Assembly: GCA_964348785.1 (NCBI GenBank)
Contig: CAYGDO010000001.1
Span: forward strand, 120,369 to 184,368
From: an uncultured Candidatus Saccharibacteria bacterium
Lineage (GTDB): Bacteria; Patescibacteriota; Minisyncoccia; Phycocordibacterales; 2-02-FULL-43-11
Reading direction: 5' to 3'
DNA: 64,000 nucleotides
The notes below the pieces were generated by a model. The model was not told where the DNA came from. It made no database searches and saw only the letters and a program-made list of their open reading frames with translations. The stretch's first letter is position 1. Each line of letters begins with the position of its first letter. The translations under genes were made by a program, and so were the position numbers. This document shows, piece after piece, positions 3,826-62,368 of the stretch.

Positions 3826-4122
3826 TACTTGTGGGCAGTACAGGATTCGGTCACGCATAATTTTCTGCTGAAAATTTGCACAACCCGTCTCCCCCGCATT
3901 GCGGGGTCCGACTTTCGAGCCCACACCCCGCTTCGCTAAGCCCACAAATTTCGAGGACTCATTGTGGGCGGTAGAGGGATCTCTCTCCTTACAGGAGCAG
4001 TACAGGTTTTCCATTTTTATTTAATTTTAAAATTAAATAAAAATAAGGAAGAACCTTTTCGAGCCCTATACCGCAAGCCAAGCAGTTGGCTTGCTCCGCG
4101 CACTGCGTTCGGAAACCTCTCT
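3826..4122. repeat. GC-rich non-coding segment downstream of tRNA-Val carrying two extra copies of the tRNA-Val 3' end
   Basis: tgtgggcggtagaggg at 3965-3980 is identical to the tRNA 3' end at 4123-4138, and a degenerate copy sits at 3826-3840. It also holds several GC hairpins (ccccgcaatgcgggg; gcaagccaactgcttggcttgc) and the motif ctctccttacaggagcRgtaca, which is shared with 15382-15405. Confidence 0.5.
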
Positions 4123-4197
4123 TGTGGGCGGTAGAGGGCTCGAACCTCTGACCCCGAGAACGTCAATCCCGTGCTCTACCAACTGAGCTAACCGCCC
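4123..4197 (-). tRNA. tRNA-Val (anticodon GAC)
   Basis: Minus-strand sequence GGGCGGTTAGCTCAGTTGGTAGAGCACGGGATTGACGTTCTCGGGGTCAGAGGTTCGAGCCCTCTACCGCCCACA folds as a cloverleaf with anticodon loop TTGACGT. Confidence 0.9.
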
Positions 4198-12640: not shown

Positions 12641-13180
12641 TTATTTAACTTTCTCCAATAAAAGTTTTCTCAATTTATTTAAAGATTCATCAAATTCAAA
12701 TTTATTTTCAAATATTATATCCGCCTCATCAAGCTGATCAAATTCCTTTTTTAAAGATAGGTACATACCAAATGAATCCTTAAGGATATGTCCCTCCCTC
12801 TTATCTTTTTCAAGTCTTTCTTTGACAACATTCTCGTCTGCTTTTATCCATACCAATAAAATTTTATCCACATATTCACCAACTCCTTCAAACAAAAAAT
12901 TACGTAATGACTTTTTATGTAAAGTTTCGTCGACAATTATATTCTTATGCAAAACATAAATAGATTTTAAATCTAAAATTACTCTTTCAAAAACTTTCAT
13001 CCTCGTATCGTCAGAAAATGGAATGTTATTTTTAATATTATATTCAAAATTTGAATCTGTTGGGTAAATCTCTTTTTTTACAGCATCAACATCATAATAG
13101 AAAAAACCCAAATCCCTTGCTATAGCTTTAGCAAGAGAAGTTTTTCCAGTTCCTATCAAGCCCGCAAAAAATATGATCAT
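12641..13180 (-). CDS. P-loop NTPase / predicted kinase (AAA_33-like ATP-binding protein)
   Basis: Walker A motif GLIGTGKTS. Start moved to the internal Met (MIIFFAGLIGTGKTS) because the longer track ORF overlaps the tRNA-Phe 3' exon. Confidence 0.6.
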   Translation of the reverse strand: MIIFFAGLIGTGKTSLAKAIARDLGFFYYDVDAVKKEIYPTDSNFEYNIKNNIPFSDDTRMKVFERVILDLKSIYVLHKNIIVDETLHKKSLRNFLFEGVGEYVDKILLVWIKADENVVKERLEKDKREGHILKDSFGMYLSLKKEFDQLDEADIIFENKFEFDESLNKLRKLLLEKVK

Positions 13181-13186
13181 TTGTTG

Positions 13187-13492
13187 TGGTGCCGAGGGCC
13201 GGGCTCGAACCGGCGACCCCATGCTCTTCCGTATACATCAAATTATTTCAATATGATGCTTGGACTATCTCATTATCCTTTTGAAAGGATATCGGGCGCT
13301 AGTACAGGATTATTGTTGGGACTCACCTGTTAGTCTCTACACCTTCCAAGAAACTTTTAACCCTTCTTGGCTTGGCTCGGGATTGTCCATATTACTATGA
13401 GTTTTCCCCGAATTCACCCAATTTGCTTTACCTATTACTAGATAAAGGCCCGAAGATTCAGGCACATGCTCTACCAACTGAGCTACCTCGGC
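13187..13492 (-). tRNA. tRNA-Phe (anticodon GAA) interrupted by a group I intron. Exons about 13460-13492 and 13187-13229; CCA encoded.
   Basis: 5' exon GCCGAGGTAGCTCAGTTGGTAGAGCATGTGCCT and 3' exon GAAGAGCATGGGGTCGCCGGTTCGAGCCCGGCCCTCGGCACCA assemble into a canonical 76-nt tRNA-Phe with loop CUGAAGA, G37 and A73. Confidence 0.8.
13230..13459 (-). ncRNA. Group I intron (IC3-like, about 230 nt) in the anticodon loop of tRNA-Phe
   Basis: Contains the conserved IC3 core GGACAATCCCGAGCCAAGCC (like CAAUCCUGAGCCAAGCC in the cyanobacterial tRNA-Leu intron) and GGTGTAGAGACTAACAGG (like GUGUAGAGACUAGACGG in the Azoarcus tRNA-Ile intron). U at exon position -1 and G at the intron 3' end are consistent with group I splice sites. 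The exact boundary is ambiguous by 1-3 nt. Confidence 0.75.
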
Positions 13493-13534
13493 ATTACTTC
13501 AAAACTGTTTAAATAAACAATTTCTAAGAATACT

Positions 13535-14251
13535 TTAACTATTTTTTAACAAATCAGCAAGTTTCCCCTTAACGCCCGCAATAAAACCAATTAACTGATG
13601 AAATTTTTTTGTATCACTAACTCTAACAGCAATAGTACCGAAAGGAAGTCGATTAAACTGACGCTTACTTTGACTTGATAAACTTTTTACATAAGAAATT
13701 TTTCCCAAACTTTCCCTTTTCAAACCTGTTACGTTTAACCAGTAAAAAATTGCTTGCTTCTCTTGTTTACGATCAAAAAGTCTTAAATTTAATCGGATTC
13801 TCGATTCTTCAATCTCTAAACATTTTCGCAAAAATAACATAAAAAACTTTATCATTTCTCCATCAGAATTAGTAAAGCTAATTGAATGATGAGTAACTTC
13901 TCTACCCCCAATCTTAACTGGTCTCTTATAACCTTCAGCCCAATACAAAGCAACACCAACAAAAAATAAATCCTTCAATAAAAAATTTTTAATGCTATCT
14001 TTAGCTTGTAAAAAAATATTATTGTTTCTTTCTTGAGCAATTAAAGTTTGTGCCTTATTTCTTTTTACTAGACCGTTTAAAACCCCAACCTCAACTTTTT
14101 TATTTATTCTTGTCCTTGCTTCTTCTGATAAGGGAAAATCTTTAAACCATCCAGATTGAGTCGATTTTGGTACTCCTAAAATTTTATATATCTCATTATA
14201 ACTATACCCCTGAGATCTCAATTGTTTTGCCTTTTCGTACCTAACATCCAT
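13535..14251 (-). CDS. HTH-domain protein, possible freestanding homing-endonuclease-like protein (weak LAGLIDADG-like FVGVALYWAEG motif)
   Basis: N-terminal resolvase-type HTH (YSYNEIYKILGVPKSTQSGW). About 238 aa. Lies immediately upstream of the intron-containing tRNA-Phe. Confidence 0.4.
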   Translation of the reverse strand: MDVRYEKAKQLRSQGYSYNEIYKILGVPKSTQSGWFKDFPLSEEARTRINKKVEVGVLNGLVKRNKAQTLIAQERNNNIFLQAKDSIKNFLLKDLFFVGVALYWAEGYKRPVKIGGREVTHHSISFTNSDGEMIKFFMLFLRKCLEIEESRIRLNLRLFDRKQEKQAIFYWLNVTGLKRESLGKISYVKSLSSQSKRQFNRLPFGTIAVRVSDTKKFHQLIGFIAGVKGKLADLLKNS

Positions 14252-14596: not shown

Positions 14597-14616
14597 AAAA
14601 TAATTTTAGCATATGA

Positions 14617-14648
14617 TTCACTTCGTTACATAATCCCCTCGACAGGAA
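14617..14648. repeat. 32-nt direct repeat of the tRNA-Arg 3' end plus flank (copy 1; copy 2 at 14791-14822)
   Basis: ttcacttcgttacataatcccctcgacaggaa is identical at both positions. The copies bracket a roughly 142-bp GC-rich insert (14649-14790) that contains the hairpin gcaaatgaagcagttcatttgc. Confidence 0.7.
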
Positions 14649-14807
14649 AAGATATCTCCTTCGACTCAAAGCTCGCCGTTGCTCGCTTTGGTCTAGGCAC
14701 CGCCTCGCCAACTCGCCTACTGGCTCGATATGGCTCCGGCGTTCGATTCCTGACGCAAATGAAGCAGTTCATTTGCTTCGAGGTGACTATTTCACTTCGT
14801 TACATAA

Positions 14808-14879
14808 TCCCCTCGACAGGAATCGAACCTGTATCTAGACGTTAGGAGTGTCTTGTTCTATCCATTGAACTACGAGGGG
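14808..14879 (-). tRNA. tRNA-Arg (anticodon CCT)
   Basis: Minus-strand CCCCTCGTAGTTCAATGGATAGAACAAGACACTCCTAACGTCTAGATACAGGTTCGATTCCTGTCGAGGGGA. Anticodon loop CTCCTAA. Confidence 0.8.
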
Positions 14880-15221: not shown

Positions 15222-15359
15222 ATTTTTAAATATTATTTATAAGTCAAAGCATTATATCCGACAAGTCATTTTGAGTAAAAAAGTTATCCCCAACTAACAA
15301 AACATCCCTCCGATTTTCGATTCCCACACAAATACACCAATTCATTAGTGTATTTAAAA

Positions 15360-15410
15360 TGCGAGTGGCGAGAATCGGACCCTCTCCTTACAGGAGCGGT
15401 ACACCTTTTG
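15360..15410. repeat. Degenerate copy of the tRNA-Gly 3' end, then the hairpin motif ctctccttacaggagcggtaca shared with 3976-4003
   Basis: tgcgagtggcgagaatcggaccc resembles the tRNA-Gly 3' end tgcggatacggagaatcgaactcc at about 17/23 positions. The 24-nt motif is about 90% identical to the one downstream of tRNA-Val. Confidence 0.45.
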
Positions 15411-15501
15411 GATATTTAAGAAAATATCTCAAAAGGTCTTGCGAAGCTCCAAGTATTCGCTTCTCACCCTATGCTTGCCCTATAAAATTTGCTTTTTTCA
15501 A

Positions 15502-15572
15502 TGCGGATACGGAGAATCGAACTCCGATCTATTGCTTGGGAAGCAATCATTTTACCACTAAACTATATCCGC
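15502..15572 (-). tRNA. tRNA-Gly (anticodon CCC)
   Basis: Minus-strand GCGGATATAGTTTAGTGGTAAAATGATTGCTTCCCAAGCAATAGATCGGAGTTCGATTCTCCGTATCCGCA. Confidence 0.85.
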
Positions 15573-15747
15573 AAATTATTTAGGGTGAGGGAAGCACATG
15601 TACTGCCACTATACTACACTCGCAAAATTAAACGGGATTCTCAAAAATTATATTCGCATAACTCATTAATTTTTGGAAGAAGCACTTATTCTACCAATAT
15701 ATTTACCCTTTTAAAATTCATATTTTATTAGGGCCACACTCGCAAAA

Positions 15748-26651: not shown

Positions 26652-27998
26652 TTAGAGCAGATTCGCCGCGAGCTCAGCGAGCTCGGAACGTTCACCTTTG
26701 GCGAGATGAACGTGAGCCGCCAGTGGTTGCCCGCGCATCCGATCGACGAGGTAAACGAAACCGTTCGAGCTTGAGTCAACGTACGGGTTGTCAATCTGCC
26801 ACGGATCACCCGTGAAGACAATCTTGGTCCCCTGTCCCACTCGAGTGACGATCGTCTTCACCTCGAGCGGTGTAAGGTTCTGGGCTTCGTCGATGACTAT
26901 GAACTGGCCAGGAATTGACCGACCCCGAATGTAGCTCAGTGCCTCAACCACGATTGTGCCGTTGCGCATAAGATCGGCAGGCTTACGCCCACCACCAGCC
27001 CCCATGTTGAGATCCCCGAGGAACTCAAGTGCATCGTGGATGGGTTGCATCCACGGCGCCAGTTTTTCCTCGAGAGTCCCCGGAAGAAACCCGATCTCTT
27101 TACCCATCGAGATCGTCGGACGAGCGACAAGCACCCGCCGATAATTTCCCGTGCCACCATCAACACCTTTGGCCTGATGAAGCCCTCCCGCGAGAGCCAA
27201 CAAGGTCTTACCCGTACCGGCCTTACCGAGAAGTGTCACCAACTTGACACGGTCGTCGAGAAGAGCGTCGAAGGCGAAGCGTTGCTCAGGATTGCGAGGA
27301 TCAATGCCCCAGACACTTTCTTTTATATCCCTAATGGGGACCAATCGACCTTCAGTATCAACCTTGGCCAACCGGTATTTATCCCCATCAGAAATGCGGC
27401 AGTACTCTCCGATTCCATGGCCAGACGGAGCTTCCATCTTGCCAGTTCTGTTGAACCGTGCGAGCTCAGCGGACTCAACCGTCATATTGAACGCGCCACT
27501 GTAAAGCGCCGAGAGCTCCACCCGGTCAGTTCTGTAGTCTTCAGACTGGATACCGATTGAGTCAGCACGGAGACGAAGGTTCACGTCCTTTGTGACGATG
27601 ACAAGAATCACACCTGGCTCCGCCGACTTGATTTGCCCTGCTCGGCGAAGAATCATCGAATCAACGTGGCCATTACCGTTACCGTTATGACCAACGTGTT
27701 CGCTGTCGCCGTTTGCCTTTTCGCCAAGAACAATCCGGAACCGTCCCCCACCAGGAAGCGTGTGTCCCACGTGGAGTTTACTTCCGGAGGCCCGCCATCC
27801 GTCGAGAATTCTCGAGACCGCCCGAGCGTTCCGTCCCAACTCATTGGACTCTCGCTTGAAATGATCAAGTTCCTCGATGACCTCGATCGGAATGAGGACG
27901 TTGTGTTCTTGGAAACTGACCAAAGCATTCGGGTCGTGAAGGAGAACATTTGTGTCGAGCAAGTAGTTCTTCCTCGTGCCTGCTGCTACATCTTTCAT
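26652..27998 (-). CDS. PIN-domain plus PhoH-like ATPase (PhoH2/YlaK family)
   Basis: N-terminal PIN (LLDTNVLLHDP...IPIEVIEELD) and C-terminal PhoH P-loop (LLGKAGTGKTLLALA). GC about 58% against about 34% for the genome, indicating foreign origin. Confidence 0.9.
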   Translation of the reverse strand: MKDVAAGTRKNYLLDTNVLLHDPNALVSFQEHNVLIPIEVIEELDHFKRESNELGRNARAVSRILDGWRASGSKLHVGHTLPGGGRFRIVLGEKANGDSEHVGHNGNGNGHVDSMILRRAGQIKSAEPGVILVIVTKDVNLRLRADSIGIQSEDYRTDRVELSALYSGAFNMTVESAELARFNRTGKMEAPSGHGIGEYCRISDGDKYRLAKVDTEGRLVPIRDIKESVWGIDPRNPEQRFAFDALLDDRVKLVTLLGKAGTGKTLLALAGGLHQAKGVDGGTGNYRRVLVARPTISMGKEIGFLPGTLEEKLAPWMQPIHDALEFLGDLNMGAGGGRKPADLMRNGTIVVEALSYIRGRSIPGQFIVIDEAQNLTPLEVKTIVTRVGQGTKIVFTGDPWQIDNPYVDSSSNGFVYLVDRMRGQPLAAHVHLAKGERSELAELAANLL

Positions 27999-28119
27999 GG
28001 TTGTTTTGCCTTTTTTAGAACCACCAAAATTAGCTTACAACTTATAGACCCACTTGCAAAGTAAAAATTATTAAAAAATTTATTTCTATTTTAGACAACC
28101 CTCTACAAAAGACTTGTCT

Positions 28120-28798: not shown

Positions 28799-29425
28799 CT
28801 ATTTACTATCAATCCATTTCACCCCAACTTTTTCAAACTGCGTTTTTAAATCTTTTTTCACTTCTTCTAAAAAGTCTTTGAGTTCTGGAAAATGATGGGT
28901 GGCTTCATCGAACGCCACCACTGCCTTGGTCGCATAGTCAGCATGAAATTCTTTTGGAACGTACGCCTCCACTCCTACTTCAGCTATATGAAGAAACCCT
29001 TCAATCTTATCTAATGCCTTCACGAACTTCGCCTCAATAGTTATCTGATCTTCATACTCGCGCCACAAGGCATAAATCCAATCCCCAAAAGGTAGGTCAT
29101 CTGTCATTTCGTGCATGGCTTTTTCTTCCATAACAGCCTTCTCTTCAATTAACTTTTTGCCTTCTAAAATCTGTTCATACGCATCAACGTCACCGGTCTT
29201 CGCTTCAGCTAAGTCGTGCAATAACGCAAGAGCGAGCGTACGATTAATATCTATTCGCACCCGAGATTCAGTTCCAATAATCAACGCCATAAGTCCCAAT
29301 CTCCAAGAGTGTTCAGCGACCGTGTTTTTATTAGCACGCATAGATGAGCCGTATCGCTCGGCTTGTTCTAAGGCTTTACTCCTTTTCAAAAACAAAAGTA
29401 CGTCGTGAATTTTTTGCTGTCTCAT
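28799..29425 (-). CDS. HD-domain 5'-deoxynucleotidase (YfbR-like, HD_3), paralog 1
   Basis: AEHSWRLG ... LLHDLAEAKTGD metal-binding H/HD motifs. 208 aa. About 50% identical to paralog 2. Confidence 0.8.
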   Translation of the reverse strand: MRQQKIHDVLLFLKRSKALEQAERYGSSMRANKNTVAEHSWRLGLMALIIGTESRVRIDINRTLALALLHDLAEAKTGDVDAYEQILEGKKLIEEKAVMEEKAMHEMTDDLPFGDWIYALWREYEDQITIEAKFVKALDKIEGFLHIAEVGVEAYVPKEFHADYATKAVVAFDEATHHFPELKDFLEEVKKDLKTQFEKVGVKWIDSK

Positions 29426-30097: not shown

Positions 30098-30231
30098 ATC
30101 TTTGTTTCTTATTAGCTATCTCCAGCGTGAATTTAGCCAGCCTATTTTTGAATGCACCCGACAGGTAAGGTTAGGGTTCCGAGCATCTATATGGACTATA
30201 GGGTTTAGTATAAAAAATTCAATTAAGGCTT

Positions 30232-30260
30232 GGGTAGTTTGTAAATCTTTAATTTACAAT
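30232..30260. repeat. Palindromic 27-bp element ggtagtTTGTAAATctttaATTTACAA, copy 1 (copy 2 at 32436-32465)
   Basis: 27/28-nt identity between the two copies. Each contains the inverted repeat TTGTAAAT/ATTTACAA. Copy 1 overlaps the last four codons of HD paralog 2. Copy 2 lies in the promoter region of the TrmB-like gene. Confidence 0.6.
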
Positions 30261-30872
30261 GTATTTCACCCCCACTTTTTCAAACTGTGTTTTCAAATCT
30301 TTTTTAATCAGATTAAGTAAATCTTTTACCTCAGGAACATTTTGTACCGCTTGGTCAAAAGCTAATACTGCTCTATCTACATAATATCCATGAAATTCTT
30401 TAGGAATATAAGCTTTTACACCCCGGTCGGCAATATGAATATAAGCTTCTATGCCGTCTAAAGCCGCCACAAATTTGGCTTCTAGGGTTTTATGATCCTC
30501 GTATTCATTCCACAAATCAAATATCTCTTTGCCAAAAGATAAATCTCGAGTTATAGCTTTCATAGCTAGTTTTTCTTTTTTATATTTATCTTGAATTAAC
30601 TTTCTTCCTTTAAGAATTTGCTCATAAGCGTCAATGTCGCCCGTCACTGACTCGGCGAGGTCGTGAATAAGGGCGAGCGCCATAGCGTGACTCAAATCAA
30701 TTTTTAGATTGCATTCTTTGGCAATAATAAAAACCATAAGAGTCAATTGCCATGAATGCTCCGCTGTGGTGTCACCATTCTTGCTAAGTGAATAACCATA
30801 TCTAGGGACAGATTTCAACTGGTTGCTACGTTGCAGAAATGTGAAGATATCTTTTACTTTTTGTTCTTTCAT
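30249..30872 (-). CDS. HD-domain 5'-deoxynucleotidase (YfbR-like), paralog 2
   Basis: AEHSWQLT ... LIHDLAESVTGD motifs. The 3' about 55 nt are nearly identical to the 3' end of paralog 1 (…DLKTQFEKVGVK[W/Y]I). Confidence 0.8.
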   Translation of the reverse strand: MKEQKVKDIFTFLQRSNQLKSVPRYGYSLSKNGDTTAEHSWQLTLMVFIIAKECNLKIDLSHAMALALIHDLAESVTGDIDAYEQILKGRKLIQDKYKKEKLAMKAITRDLSFGKEIFDLWNEYEDHKTLEAKFVAALDGIEAYIHIADRGVKAYIPKEFHGYYVDRAVLAFDQAVQNVPEVKDLLNLIKKDLKTQFEKVGVKYIVN

Positions 30873-30978: not shown

Positions 30979-32268
30979 CTACCTGCTCAACTTCAACTGC
31001 GCGGCGTCCCTCGCTTCGAAGTGACGCATTGCGGTCTCAATGCACCGACGGAACGACAGTCCGTAAGTGATTGGGGCCAAGGGCCCCCACACGATCGGGT
31101 CCGCCGCGGCGTGGCGGAATATCTGCTGAAGGATGGTCGGCGGAAGTTTCCGCCGTAACGGGCTGTTTGGATCCGCCAGAGCCAACAACAGGTCTTCATC
31201 GTTAGTGGGTCTTTCGTTTTCTGGGATGTCCTTCCACGCGTGCTCCATGGCTCGCGCGAAACGTCTGTCCCATGTGCTGACCAGTTGACCGTGTGTGGGG
31301 GCGAAGCCAGCGATTCCGCCATGCTGAACTATTCCCACCCCGAAGGCGAACTCGGAAGAAAACTCCCCGCCTTTTCTGCGCTCAGCGCGGGTGAGTCCTT
31401 GTAGGATATTTCTCAGCATGTAGACAACTCGCATGAACATGTCGAGCTGGTCTGTTGAGACCCTCCGAACCTCCTGCCAGTATTCTTCCTCCTCCGTGGG
31501 GTACTTATTTTGGCGCTTCTTCATGTTAGCTACGCCCGCAGCGGGAGGACGGTTCTTGCAAGCGCAAGGGCCGTAATTGCAGTACAGGCACCTGAATATT
31601 TCGCGAGGTCCCGATGATGTGCCAATCACCTCTGCCGGTCGTCCGTACTTGTACGTCGCGCACAGGACGAGCATGTCGAGTGGAACCTGGACATTCTCGG
31701 GCAACGATTCGTTCACTGCAAAGACGGAGAACATCTCATAGAGATAAACTTTCCCGAAGAGGTACTCCATCTCTTCGAGCACAGCCGAGTCAACGCGAGA
31801 TTCGTCACGCCACGTTGTTATCTCTCGGGAGAACGCTTGCGCATTCAACTGGGCGGTTGAGTCCGGTTTTTCACCCAACAGCAACTGAACGAGATTGAAG
31901 CCGGTTGTGAAAACTTCCTGCCTCCCGAGCAATATAAGCTGGGAAGGGTCAACCCTATCTGTTGCGCGCTTCTTCCGCGCCATCGTCCCTTTCAGCTCGC
32001 GGAATTCCAACTCGACCTGCGCCTCCACACTGCCACGTTGCAGATGCGTAGCATTCCGCCAAAACGCTTCTTCAGCGTCTTGCATCGAGGGGGTGAAGCC
32101 GGCGATCACCCCATGAAATCTTGCGTCACGATCGACCTGCTCTTCGAGTCCCGAGCGTGCCTGGTTGGCTTTCCCGATCAGTGTTTCTGAGTCCCGCGAC
32201 CCAGTCCAACGTTTCCACAGTTCGTAGATTCGAAGGATCATATCGTAAAGCGACTCTGTATTCTTCAT
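30979..32268 (-). CDS. Hypothetical 429-aa protein in a strongly GC-rich (about 60%) insert, with an internal duplication and a Cys cluster
   Basis: Long ORF confined to the GC-rich patch. Repeated modules FHGVIAGFTPS... and QHGGIAGFAPTHG.... CLYCNYGPCAC (CxxCx4CxC). GC hairpin ggccgtcagtcgcgagattgctctcgcaacgacggcc just past the stop. No family recognized. Confidence 0.5.
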   Translation of the reverse strand: MKNTESLYDMILRIYELWKRWTGSRDSETLIGKANQARSGLEEQVDRDARFHGVIAGFTPSMQDAEEAFWRNATHLQRGSVEAQVELEFRELKGTMARKKRATDRVDPSQLILLGRQEVFTTGFNLVQLLLGEKPDSTAQLNAQAFSREITTWRDESRVDSAVLEEMEYLFGKVYLYEMFSVFAVNESLPENVQVPLDMLVLCATYKYGRPAEVIGTSSGPREIFRCLYCNYGPCACKNRPPAAGVANMKKRQNKYPTEEEEYWQEVRRVSTDQLDMFMRVVYMLRNILQGLTRAERRKGGEFSSEFAFGVGIVQHGGIAGFAPTHGQLVSTWDRRFARAMEHAWKDIPENERPTNDEDLLLALADPNSPLRRKLPPTILQQIFRHAAADPIVWGPLAPITYGLSFRRCIETAMRHFEARDAAQLKLSR

Positions 32269-32478
32269 GGTTGCTCCTAGACGGTATCGTCAAGCCAATC
32301 TTGTGCCGGCTTGTTTTGTTTACGTCAAAGAACCTTGTCAATTCATCCACCTGCCTAAAAGACAGACAGATCGGACATCAGTTCTTGACACCCATGTGAA
32401 ATATAGTGTATAATATAAAAAGGTCAATTGAGACATAGGTAGTTTGTAAATCTTCAATTTACAACTTTTTTAACACAT

Positions 32479-62231: not shown

Positions 62232-62368
62232 AAAAAAATAACCCGCCATGCGGGAAGAAAAATGACTAGTTATCCTCCCCTAATGGGGCTGGGTTTGGCA
62301 CCTTATTAAAAACAGGTTGCCGGGCGAATCATTGAGCCAGAACTCTCATCGCCACTCTTGATAAATAT
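62232..62368 (-). promoter_or_regulatory. SAM-I (S-box) riboswitch in the metK leader
   Basis: Minus-strand TTATCAAGAGTGGCGATGAGAG..TGGCTCAATGATTCGCCCGGCAACC...GGTGCCAAACCCAGCC matches the SAM-I consensus (YTCTTATCAAGAG.GG.GGAGGGA...GGCCC.ATGA..CC.GCAACC...GGTGC.AA.TCC). Terminator cccgcatggcggg + T-run lies immediately before the ATG. Confidence 0.75.

Follow-up and report, generated by a model that had tools for sequence, protein, structure and literature searches.

Results

A repeat-bracketed unit behind tRNA-Arg(CCT)

Behind the intact tRNA-Arg(CCT) gene of the window (the whole 64-kb stretch of DNA that we analysed), the 32-nt sequence TTCACTTCGTTACATAATCCCCTCGACAGGAA occurs as a direct repeat with 0 mismatches and in exactly two copies (Table 1). 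No match was expected from 100 shuffles, none of which (0/100) yielded even one extra copy. The insert between the copies measures 142 nt (14649-14790) and forms, together with one repeat copy, a unit of 174 bp; the G+C content is ~58% for the element and ~35% for the window. An earlier note on this DNA had described a perfect 32-bp repeat whose second copy spans the last 15 nt of tRNA-Arg(CCT) and 17 nt of flank, and a GC-rich insert with a strong hairpin. This description held throughout, the tRNA portion by ARAGORN and Rfam placement and the hairpin with a stem of 9 bp. The T-loop-like gttcgattcc pointed out in the same note is also present, as the plus-strand reading of 14741-14754, but the note missed that it belongs to a segment of 12-20 nt that copies the tRNA 3' end in inverted orientation, seen on the plus strand of the element as GTTCGATTCCTG, a 12-nt inverted copy of the tRNA-Arg T-loop region.

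Read in the tRNA sense, the proximal repeat supplies the last T-loop base, the T-stem 3' strand, the acceptor 3' strand and the discriminator (14808-14822), followed by the 17-nt flank f (14791-14807) with ACGAAGTG at 14793-14800 (motif ACGNAGTG). The anti-acceptor feature recurs in four other copies (L007, L008, L017 and L012-Phe). The hairpin hp is missing at empty sites and has a different stem sequence with the pairing kept in other copies. The hypervariable hairpin of P2 likewise keeps its stem pairing by compensated changes, and the P3 stem is swapped for compensated variants in L012-Phe, L012-Val, L017 and L018. In other family copies, GGAGAU directly adjoins the tRNA 3'-end copy. The short Logan contig L003 breaks off inside the distal 32-nt repeat.

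No ORF longer than 48 aa lies in the element, and no protein homologue was found. Searches of the tRNA-Arg, tRNA-Val and tRNA-Gly loci and L018 against Rfam 15, at the gathering threshold and at E<=10, matched no family for the element; the output consisted of tRNAs, the tRNA-Phe group I intron and noise only. RF00028 had no match on 14600-14830 at E<=10, and the tRNA-Phe intron scored 70.1 bits in the same search. This intron (13241-13469) lies 1.3 kb from the element. A sigma-70-like site (TTAGCA-17-CATAAT, 14606-14634, plus strand) was not used, as the count of such sites equals the shuffle expectation. The CGCC-G-GA/GA-GGCG loop of P2 resembles a K-turn, with a 1-nt bulge, and we claim the resemblance only.

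Table 1 Features of the tRNA-Arg, tRNA-Val and tRNA-Gly loci in the window.
Feature	Position	Strand	Basis or description
tRNA-Val distal insert, older element with type-A helix plan	3828-3961	minus	Model R1
tRNA-Val proximal insert, type B	3979-4121	minus	Between 17-nt repeats (4122-4138, 3962-3978)
Distal copy of the 32-nt repeat	14617-14648	minus	tRNA 3'-end fragment 14634-14647 and copy of flank f 14617-14633
Element 3' end, AGAUAUCUUU	14648-14657	minus	Borders the distal repeat copy
Helix P3, GCCUAGACCAAAGC...GCUUUGAGUCGAAGG	14658-14698	minus	Most conserved block of the family
Helix P2	14700-14740	minus	Conserved base CGCC-G-GA ... GA-GGCG (tandem G-A internal loop) and hypervariable hairpin
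Helix P1a, 5' strand: linker GUC, CAGG, AAUCGAAC	14741-14754	minus	CAGG pairs with T-stem 3' strand; AAUCGAAC is T-loop antisense
Hairpin hp, GCAAAUGAA-CUGC-UUCAUUUGC	14755-14776	minus	Splits the inverted tRNA 3'-end copy
Anti-acceptor segment, CACCUCGAA, helix P1b	14777-14785	minus	Complementary to the tRNA acceptor 3' strand CGAGGGG (MFE fold)
Proximal copy of the 32-nt repeat	14791-14822	minus	tRNA 3' end and flank f
tRNA-Arg(CCT), intact, no encoded CCA	14808-14879	minus	ARAGORN; Rfam RF00005, 65.2 bits
Decayed type-A remnant behind old tRNA-Gly	15304-15355	minus	Read from the sequence
Broken old tRNA-Gly(CCC)	15360-15623	minus	Old allele intact in L005 (9386-9458) and L006 (965-1037)

Empty sites in close relatives

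In L005 and L006, tRNA-Arg is followed after 35-53 nt by the gene of a 94-aa protein, 79% and 74% identical, respectively, to its counterpart in the window, and the element is absent. Because both relatives have this next gene directly after tRNA-Arg, genome comparison shows the 174-bp unit to be an insertion. Precise empty sites were also found at tRNA-Gly in L005 and at tRNA-Val in L016, which corresponds to L012 minus the element and one repeat. Judged from these alignments, elements of the family come and go between close relatives.

A family of related units in Patescibacteria

The ~100-nt core of the element was found behind tRNA-Gly in L006 with 92.8% identity over 97 nt. Covariance-model matches of 95-137 bits were obtained behind tRNA-Cys (L007), tRNA-Arg-TCT (L008), tRNA-Gly (L012) and tRNA-Glu (L017) and also in L018, with weaker ones in L012 behind tRNA-Phe (35 bits) and tRNA-Val (19 bits). 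The host names point to Kaiserbacteria, Woesebacteria, 'Patescibacteria group' and Paceibacteria-like genomes, and the same architecture is present in independent JGI, ENA, NCBI and Logan assemblies from other samples. Across different lineages, nine copies at no fewer than seven tRNA species agree in both ends and in the order of their internal parts. Read in the tRNA sense, a unit begins with the tRNA 3' end and a short flank; next comes this 3' end again as an inverted copy, whose acceptor part is separated by the hairpin from its T-stem and T-loop part, and then P2, P3, GGAGAU and a downstream tRNA 3'-end fragment. These comparisons show that the element belongs to a family undescribed before, which stands behind many tRNA genes across the Patescibacteria (CPR bacteria).

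The units are ~150-190 bp long, non-coding and directly 3' of tRNA genes; the exception is the full copy in L018, which has terminator-like hairpins on its flanks and no intact tRNA closer than 5 kb. The base of P2 and P3 are near-invariant across hosts of 35% to ~65% G+C. The downstream tRNA copy comprises the last 14-20 nt of the tRNA, from the T loop onward; at most loci it matches the tRNA with 100% identity, and it has no CCA unless the gene encodes one. Repeat lengths are 17, 17, 18, 20, 22, 32 and 46 nt. All repeats have their start within the T loop, in its 3' half, and most (17-22 nt) end 0-5 nt beyond the tRNA; that of the window, at 32 nt, and that of L006, at 46 nt, are longer. Copies in tandem and copies in decay were seen at tRNA-Val and tRNA-Gly and in L004 and L009, with decay by internal deletion in L004, L009 and at 15304-15325 of the window.

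An exhaustive protein search with the open sense frame of the element returned the short ORFs P0126 and P0130, which correspond to the real copies L017 and L018; its other eight matches were long unrelated proteins aligned over short stretches only, and a word-indexed search with this frame gave no match. In phage (50,697 records) and plasmid (72,556 records) collections, blastn with the core detected only chance matches in coding regions. L019, the sole match of four IMG/VR pattern scans, was set aside as chance (13.7 bits with the model, neither P3 nor a tRNA), and an insert upstream of tRNA-Phe in L005 was rejected as a family member, its alignment scores lying inside the shuffle range.

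Tandem and nested elements at tRNA-Val and tRNA-Gly

The tRNA-Val and tRNA-Gly loci of the window hold related elements, in tandem or nested (Table 1). The 17-nt repeat at tRNA-Val is CCCTCTACCGCCCACAA. Within the proximal insert, ACGCAGTG is located at 4101-4108 and a hairpin at 4073-4094; the 3' end of tRNA-Val recurs there as a 17-nt inverted copy (4058-4074), and 3979-4004 forms the 3' motif UGUACUGCUCCUGUAAGGAGAGAGAU. A copy ~95% identical to this insert lies at tRNA-Val in L009. The distal insert, with an anti-T-loop at 3912-3922, P2 at 3887-3912 and P3 at 3850-3881, matched model R1, made from tRNA-Arg-type copies, with 17.4 bits (E 0.007 over all sources, 4e-5 locally). Its last part (3828-3849) is the 3' end of an older allele of tRNA-Val. 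We preferred such an allele as the source of this third tRNA-Val fragment over a 29-nt deletion of a type-B end because the orthologous element of L012 (10009-10105) ends in L012's own tRNA-Val 3' end. The proximal insert and the tRNA-Gly insert have in common a 37-nt motif with a compensated stem.

Comparison with the intact allele of the relatives shows the tRNA-Gly locus to be an old tRNA gene that two insertions have disrupted. Its 5' half lies at 15589-15623; a complete new tRNA-Gly has been inserted at 15501-15573; the anticodon-stem 3' strand and a type-B element occupy 15382-15477, and the old gene resumes from the T loop to the 3' end at 15360-15381. A tRNA with a giant intron housing a second tRNA was rejected, as the relatives' allele shows two separate insertions. 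The remnant behind the old gene consists of a hairpin (15330-15355) and GGGAAUCGAA-AA-UCGGAGGGAU (15304-15325), has lost P2 and P3, and occupies the position of the full elements in L006 and L012.

The earlier note had seen the tRNA-Arg architecture again at tRNA-Val, which proved correct, and had taken 15360-15383 for a degenerate copy of the present tRNA-Gly 3' end; this segment is instead the true 3' end of the older disrupted allele, intact in L005 and L006. Its suggestion of a recurrent family targeting tRNA 3' ends, integrative or miniature and non-autonomous, is borne out by the same core behind other tRNAs and in other genomes, and the polymorphism that it proposed to look for is provided by the empty sites. 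The insert comparison that it also proposed joins the tRNA-Val distal insert to the tRNA-Arg-type copies and the tRNA-Val proximal insert to that of tRNA-Gly. Of its description of the inserts as scars, the targeting of tRNA 3' ends stands, but the inserts are complete structured units and not remains of larger islands.

Strand-specific fold and pairing of the inverted copy

In the predicted fold, 92.5% of cells are paired and 26/34 pairs have changed on both sides, figures inflated by an alignment that was fitted to the model. The observed value of the pairing test was reached in 0/500 shuffles, and slid controls gave 0.04-0.10 against 0.553. G-U and A-C combinations numbered 12 and 2, a strand asymmetry, and the sense fold was 4-12 kcal/mol better than the antisense fold in 7/8 type-A-like copies, with L012-Phe equal. 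The predicted fold is, on this modelling, selected on the tRNA-sense strand only.

Where the tRNA copies differ, namely in L017, the distal tRNA-Val insert of the window and L009, the inverted copy matches the proximal one. In L017, 20/20 of its positions are complementary to the intact tRNA-Glu, with the hairpin as the sole interruption, and the distal copy has 4 mismatches. Between the tRNA-Gly alleles of L006 and L012, GGGAAUC versus GAGAAUC follows T-stem CCC versus CUC.

Discussion

A possible integrative cassette

Starting from an insertion and a family that the genome comparisons show, we infer an enzyme and an intermediate. We see about an even chance that the element is a miniature, non-autonomous integrative cassette with a tRNA 3' end of its own, and that it undergoes Campbell-type recombination in the T loop, probably through a folded-single-strand attachment site, and is mobilised in trans. 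None of the copies contains or adjoins a recombinase gene, and neither a tyrosine-recombinase (HxLRH) motif scan nor Pfam on ten unannotated ORFs detected one in the 64-kb window. The free element would be a small circle (tRNA 3' end - flank - inverted copy - P2 - P3 - GGAGAU), in which the inverted copy would pair with the element's own tRNA 3' end to form a branched rod, its stem being the target gene sequence from the T loop to the acceptor end. A recombinase supplied in trans would exchange strands in the T loop, between ..GUUC and GAUUCC... The resident tRNA would keep its own 5' two-thirds and receive the element's 3' end, and so would still be functional; the tRNA 3' end in the proximal repeat would be the element-borne copy, and the displaced resident 3' end would move downstream to become the distal repeat. 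An element with its own tRNA 3' end and the complement thereof predicts that the inverted copy tracks the proximal tRNA copy.

The attachment site would most likely act as a folded single strand, like an integron attC or the CTX-phage attP hairpin, because the fold appears selected on one strand only; a single-stranded form is also invoked because of the great stiffness that a circle of 150-190 bp would have as a double strand. Repeated integration at one tRNA would give tandem arrays, with old copies decaying through internal deletion, and a circle or tandem junction would read GGAGAU(AUCUUU)-UCCUGUCGAGGGGA-UUAUGUAACG..AUAGUC. The flank portions of the longer repeats (window, L006) would need an extra assumption, either a partly deleted earlier tandem copy or an element originating at the same locus, and a change of target tRNA would need the 3'-end copy and its complement to be altered together. 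In a bolder form of the proposal, which we regard as doubtful, the elements would make up a new class of mobile nucleic acids, minimal and self-contained, namely single-stranded ~160-nt circles (DNA or RNA) that use the tRNA 3' end and its complement as a re-writable guide, recruit a host enzyme through P2-P3 and retarget to any tRNA by re-copying the local gene. They would then be programmable and protein-less, confined to Patescibacteria, and would drive tRNA allele turnover.

Alternative explanations

A fold that is selected in the tRNA sense, has numerous G-U pairs and includes tandem G-A motifs is also what a tRNA-like non-coding RNA gene would present. Such a gene would start at the anti-acceptor strand and stop with the distal tRNA 3' end, be transcribed with or after the tRNA, be processed like a tRNA and serve the cell, for instance by binding a protein, acting as a decoy or regulating tRNA maturation. 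Its product would fold into an acceptor/T-stem minihelix with the hairpin in place of the D and anticodon arms and P2-P3 in place of the T loop, and its presence or absence in strains would be due to ordinary homologous recombination. The near-constancy of P3 and the base of P2 over a host G+C range of 35% to ~65%, the L018 copy between terminator-like hairpins with no intact tRNA nearby, and the perfect identity of the distal tRNA copy at most loci agree with this reading. We nevertheless think it unlikely: the element is precisely absent from close relatives, decays by internal deletion and stands in several tandem copies at a single tRNA; its inverted segment pairs with the upstream tRNA copy, not the distal one, where the two differ; and with at least seven host tRNA species a single tRNA-linked role is not apparent. 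Clearly improbable, in our judgement, is a SINE-like, RNA-mediated insertion, in which the anti-T-loop would pair with the tRNA gene or transcript, the RNA would be copied into DNA at a T-loop nick, and a variable second nick would produce duplications of 17-46 nt. The sense-strand fold, the guide-like complement to the target and repeats of variable length with one end fixed in the T loop all speak for it. A YxDD motif scan of ORFs, however, found no reverse transcriptase in the window, and Nakagawa et al. (2026, PMC13011429) report group II introns absent from Patescibacteria. The distal repeat would have been copied from DNA or a precursor, not from a mature tRNA, because it has no CCA unless the gene encodes one; repeats that mostly end 0-5 nt beyond the tRNA fit an element-borne tRNA copy better than a random nick; and the flank and hairpin are not duplicated target sequence, because empty sites lack them.

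Repeats such as these are classic for tRNA attachment sites, tRNA-targeting islands such as tycheposons are known to accrete in tandem and to leave remnants (bioRxiv 10.1101/2020.12.28.424599), and the repeated CTCGCC-like words of the plus strand could be arm-type binding sites. All three points would suit scars of large integrase-encoding islands or prophages, with attL and attR left adjacent after deletion and the core as an attP arm. This origin has a low probability in our view, since independent deletions would stop at differing bases and the nine copies at seven tRNA species have the same ends and order; compensated base pairs on one strand inside the element are unexpected for a decaying scar, no copy lies beside an integrase, and the phage, plasmid and IMG/VR searches gave no match. 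Chance, misassembly and simple local tandem duplication are hardly credible as origins of the repeat. The source is a metagenome assembly and contig L003 ends within the repeat, but the shuffles and the independent assembly of the architecture in other samples argue against chance or an artefact, and the 142 nt between the copies are not repeated. A plain tandem duplication, which the earlier note had named as a counter-reading, is excluded because these 142 nt are a conserved element.

Implications for Patescibacteria

Patescibacteria have some of the smallest bacterial genomes and were assumed to hold few mobile elements besides group I introns. The ~160-bp structured cassettes described here appear to land repeatedly behind their tRNA genes, stacking in tandem and decaying, and coincide with strong turnover of tRNA alleles and with essential tRNA genes that are mosaic, inverted or even disrupted; these changes are seen between strains whose neighbouring proteins are 74-98% identical. 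If true, the folded-strand model of the cassette would extend attC/CTX-type single-strand recombination to tRNA genes and to a gene-less element, and would offer a very small natural tRNA-site integration module. For annotation, the units generate partial tRNA fragments and spurious small ORFs, and assemblies break at them (L003); a covariance model of the units would improve the annotation of CPR genomes.

Comparison with known systems

tRNA-targeting integrative elements, reportedly as set out by Williams in 2002, insert into the 3' portion of tRNA genes and bring a copy of the tRNA 3' end with them, and the gene stays intact. The element resembles them in its apparent integration into the tRNA 3' part with an own 3'-end copy that keeps the gene intact, in the direct repeats of this part and in its polymorphic presence between close strains. 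Like tyrosine-recombinase elements of this kind (islands, P4-like satellites, Prochlorococcus tycheposons), it has a full tRNA at one end and a partial one at the other. At tRNA-targeting islands, successive integrations push older copies outward and leave remnants (tycheposons, bioRxiv 10.1101/2020.12.28.424599; PMC9897764). Unlike these islands, which span kilobases, the element measures 150-190 bp, has neither integrase nor cargo, consists as a whole of one conserved covarying fold and holds the tRNA 3' end again as an inverted copy of 12-20 nt, split by a hairpin. We know of no tRNA-targeting island with such a split inverted copy.

In integron attC sites and the CTX-phage attP(+) hairpin (XerCD), a folded single strand rebuilds the duplex that the recombinase recognises. 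Similarly, the inverted arms of the element, tens of bases apart, are predicted to pair within one strand, the variable part keeps structure and not sequence, and selection is strand-specific. Like attC sites and ORF-less cassettes, the element is very small and non-coding, with a putative crossover at the edge of a paired stem, its single-strandedness being read from strand asymmetry only. In contrast to both systems, the target is the tRNA T loop and not attI or dif, an extra conserved two-helix domain (P2-P3) is present, and no neighbouring IntI- or Xer-type gene was found for any copy. The attC core GTTRRRY and inverse core RYYYAAC do not apply either: the ends are AATCGAAC and GTTCGAT, and the fourth base breaks both. 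Integron arrays also differ in that the copies described here sit behind separate tRNA genes, with no integrase found in the window.

MITEs, Correia elements, REPINs and PATEs are short, structured, multi-copy non-coding repeats that use an enzyme encoded elsewhere. The element shares this profile, in its case with a presumed enzyme elsewhere. It departs from MITEs in having no classical terminal inverted repeats, its ends having only AATC in common, in target duplications that are not of fixed length (17-46 nt), and in a strict targeting of tRNA 3' ends in which part of its own sequence matches the target tRNA.

Group I introns occur in tRNA genes of Patescibacteria (Nakagawa et al. 2026, PMC13011429). 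Unlike such an intron, the element stands behind an intact tRNA and not inside it, gives no RF00028 match, is at ~100 nt below the size of a group I core, and pairs with the T loop without a splice-site G-U. It has in common with these introns the lineage, the kind of host gene and a guide-like segment complementary to the tRNA.

Insertion at tRNA-Arg

A 32-bp perfect direct repeat had been reported at tRNA-Arg(CCT) in the earlier note. This was confirmed: the 32-mer TTCACTTCGTTACATAATCCCCTCGACAGGAA occurs exactly twice in the window, and none is expected by chance. Given the position of the tRNA gene, the copy that lies upstream in tRNA orientation therefore consists of the last 15 nt of the tRNA and 17 nt of flank, as had been described. 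The account of the intervening 142 nt as a GC-rich insert with a T-loop-like sequence and a hairpin was also accurate; the G+C content is ~58% (~35% for the window), and the insert holds a hairpin of 9 bp as well as 12 nt of the tRNA-Arg T-loop region in inverted orientation.

The 94-aa protein encoded beside the element had only three homologues in the protein collection, and their contigs were syntenic. In the relatives L005 (79% identity) and L006 (74%), the 94-aa gene starts 35-53 nt after the corresponding tRNA-Arg, and the site has no second tRNA end, no hairpin and no GC-rich block. The tRNA-Arg unit is an insertion. A third arrangement was present in L004 (98% identity, with near-identical flanking DNA), where a tRNA-Arg carrying the 3' two-thirds of another allele is followed by 54 nt, the displaced 3' 52 nt of the window-type tRNA and a shortened element from which both conserved helices, P2 and P3, are deleted. 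The locus is therefore hypervariable among near-identical strains. In the relative L012, a tRNA-Arg(CCT) with the window's sequence lies inverted between the same two genes, with no element behind it.

Table. Positions of features in the window and related contigs
Feature	Contig	Position (strand)	Remarks
32-mer, two copies	window	14617-14648, 14791-14822	
tRNA-Arg(CCT)	window	14808-14879 (minus)	
tRNA-Val proximal unit, type B	window	3979-4121	shares ACGCAGTG, CUGC hairpin and 17-nt inverted tRNA end
tRNA-Val distal unit	window	3850-3961	type-A helix plan; ends in 3' end of older tRNA-Val allele
tRNA-Phe(GAA)	window	13180-13503 (minus)	anticodon loop split by group I intron (RF00028, 70.1 bits, 13241-13469)
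238-aa ORF	window	13535-14251 (minus)	directly upstream of tRNA-Phe; only a weak HTH_23 match
PIN-PhoH fusion protein gene	window	26655-28034 (minus)	second GC-rich patch (48% G+C)
429-aa ORF	window	30979-32268 (minus)	47% G+C in 35% G+C genome; no Pfam match; between paralogous HD-domain genes (28799-29425, 30249-30872) and 86-nt repeats (30184-30269, 32389-32474)
SAM-I riboswitch	window	62267-62367 (minus)	RF00162, 62.9 bits
Inverted tRNA-Arg(CCT)	L012	2078-2149	
tRNA-Phe 5'-end copy	L005	10300-10420	13-16 nt copy + ~95-nt GC-rich insert, upstream of intact tRNA-Phe
tRNA-Leu(UAA)-like 5' half, then GIY-YIG ORF	L007	1040-1290	adjoins element-bearing tRNA-Cys
Type-A copy and second tRNA-like unit	L018	4950-5440	bracketed by 45-nt terminator-like repeat

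Copies behind other tRNA genes

A core 92.8% identical over 97 nt lies behind tRNA-Gly(CCC) in L006, bracketed by a 46-nt repeat in which flank is joined to that tRNA's final 14 nt. Exact-word scans of metagenome and genome collections yielded two more copies, behind tRNA-Cys (L007) and tRNA-Arg(TCT) (L008). A covariance model built from these three copies and the window's tRNA-Arg copy matched the 17.7-kb syntenic relative L012 at tRNA-Gly (94.7 bits), tRNA-Phe (34.9 bits) and tRNA-Val (19.1 bits), and the window's distal tRNA-Val insert (17.4 bits). Two spurious ORFs translating the element led to further copies, one behind tRNA-Glu in L017 (114 bits) and one in L018 (99 bits), the latter with no intact tRNA within 5 kb. 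Inspection of the window's tRNA-Glu, both tRNA-Ser and tRNA-Phe revealed no such unit behind them. By the names of neighbouring proteins, the element contigs were assigned to Kaiserbacteria, Woesebacteria and 'Patescibacteria group', and the window was placed near Paceibacteria. The copies behind several tRNA species and the empty sites in relatives bear out the earlier proposal of a recurrent element family at tRNA 3' ends, and it is very probable that this is a mobile, non-autonomous insertion family.

In L018, the full type-A copy (helix plan as at tRNA-Arg) is followed by a second tRNA-like unit, which has a different insert inside its T loop in direct orientation (GGGTTCGAT..GATTCCCGG) and an additional insert between T stem and acceptor strand.

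Two tandem units lie behind the window's tRNA-Val. The proximal, type-B unit has a differing 3' part (..UGUACYGCUCCUGUAAGGAGAGAGAU), and contig L009 carries a ~95% identical copy; the distal unit is orthologous to the L012 element, and L016 (93% MscL identity) has a bare tRNA-Val site. The window's old tRNA-Gly gene, of an allele that L005 and L006 retain intact, is disrupted: its anticodon loop contains a complete new tRNA-Gly, a type-B unit separates the 5' strand of its T stem from its T loop, and a decayed type-A remnant comes after its 3' end. Across the window, L004, L005, L006, L012 and L016, the acceptor and T stems of tRNA-Gly, tRNA-Val and tRNA-Arg differ at several compensated positions, with flanking proteins 74-98% identical, and in L004 and L006 tRNA-Arg is a mosaic built from two alleles. 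These patterns suggest frequent replacement of tRNA gene segments.

Anatomy and fold of the element

On the tRNA-sense strand, the intact tRNA is followed by a short flank, f; a segment complementary to the acceptor 3' strand; a hairpin, often with a CUGC loop, whose stem varies among copies and pairs in all; a linker G(C)GUC; a segment complementary to the T-stem 3' strand and T loop (..GGAAUCGAAC); helix P2, with a conserved base (CGCC-G-GA ... GA-GGCG) bearing a hypervariable hairpin; helix P3 (GCCUAGACCAAAGC ... GCUUUGAGUCGNNGG); GGAGAU; and a second tRNA copy, from GAUUCC.. to the tRNA 3' end. At five loci, from three independent lineages, flank f contains ACGNAGTG no more than about 25 nt from where the tRNA ends; this motif occurs five times in the window, three of them at element sites, against 2.2 expected in 128 kb. 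The flank motif region, the hairpin and all that lies downstream of the hairpin are missing from empty sites and therefore belong to the insert.

In an eight-sequence alignment, 92.5% of cells were paired and both sides had changed in 26 of 34 pairs; none of 500 shuffles reached the observed value, and the covariation score of 0.553 fell to 0.04-0.10 once partners were slid. All these figures are generous, since the alignment was fitted to the model. Raw sequences nevertheless displayed clear swaps in the P2 distal stem (GCCA/UGGC, ACUA/UAGU and 8-10-bp GC stems), the P2 base (GCC/GGC versus GUC/GAC), P3 (CAAAGC/GCUUUG versus AAAUUUUUGC/GCAAAAAUUU) and its outer pairs (CCU/AGG versus CCC/GGG), and L018 had U-A pairs versus tandem G-A. 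Among paired cells, G-U outnumbered A-C by 12 to 2. The sense strand folded 4-12 kcal/mol better than its complement in 7 of 8 type-A-like copies, the L012 tRNA-Phe copy being equal. The fold is real and strand-specific, and the folding strand is the one that reads like tRNA.

Which tRNA copy travels, and a possible mechanism

The match of the inverted segment to its host tRNA is specific and not limited to the universal T loop: between tRNA-Gly alleles, GGGAAUC (L006) versus GAGAAUC (L012) tracks T-stem CCC versus CUC, and pairing with the host tRNA extends to 13 of 14 positions in L008 and 16 of 17 in the window's proximal tRNA-Val insert. At loci where the two tRNA copies are not identical, it is the proximal copy that the segment matches. 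The L017 segment is perfectly complementary (20/20) to the intact tRNA-Glu, broken only by the hairpin, and the distal copy has four mismatches; GGGCUCGAA in the window's distal tRNA-Val insert agrees with the T loop of the present tRNA-Val and not with CGAAUCC of the older distal fragment; the L009 segment likewise matches its proximal copy. Such matches are to be expected if the core moves as one unit with the proximal 3' end and the complement of that end.

The distal fragment would then be the displaced resident tRNA 3' end, left by Campbell-type integration with a crossover in the T loop, which would account for most repeats starting mid T loop and ending 0-5 nt past the tRNA. The circularised unit is predicted to fold as a branched rod in which the tRNA 3' end pairs with its complement, with flank and hairpin at one end and P2-P3 at the other. 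The rod stem would have the sequence of the target duplex, and the junction between GGA and GAUU would fall where pairing of the rod stops. That selection is specific to one strand suggests that attachment takes place at a folded single strand, as it does at integron attC sites and the CTX-phage attP hairpin. The enzyme would have to be supplied in trans; searches of the 64-kb window turned up neither a recombinase motif nor a recombinase domain, and there was no recombinase among the neighbours of element copies. To the model as a whole, in which a small folded circle recombines in the T loop, we give roughly even chances. The flank parts of the repeats, 17 nt in the window and 32 nt in L006, lie outside its account and may be what is left of a former tandem copy.

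Other features of the window and relatives

The intron in the window's tRNA-Phe(GAA) makes ARAGORN miss the gene; tRNA-Phe of L004, L005 and L012 has no intron. The adjacent 238-aa ORF, absent from L004 and L012, could be a candidate free-standing homing endonuclease. The 429-aa ORF region looks like a foreign insertion. The L007 feature probably represents a group I intron carrying a homing endonuclease, and the L005 insert has no significant similarity to the other inserts.

Comparison with known systems

An Rfam search of the element returned no group I or other family match, and our literature searches turned up no account of such units from Patescibacteria. The element does not match the integron attC core consensus, and it has neither MITE-type ends nor a fixed target duplication. 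Its repeat logic, tandem accretion and remnants are like those of tRNA-targeting integrase elements such as tycheposons (bioRxiv 10.1101/2020.12.28.424599) and those covered by the review PMC9897764. However, an integrase and cargo define those elements, whereas the present one lacks both and its whole 150-190 bp form one conserved fold. We rate it as a miniature, structured, tRNA-site integrative cassette.
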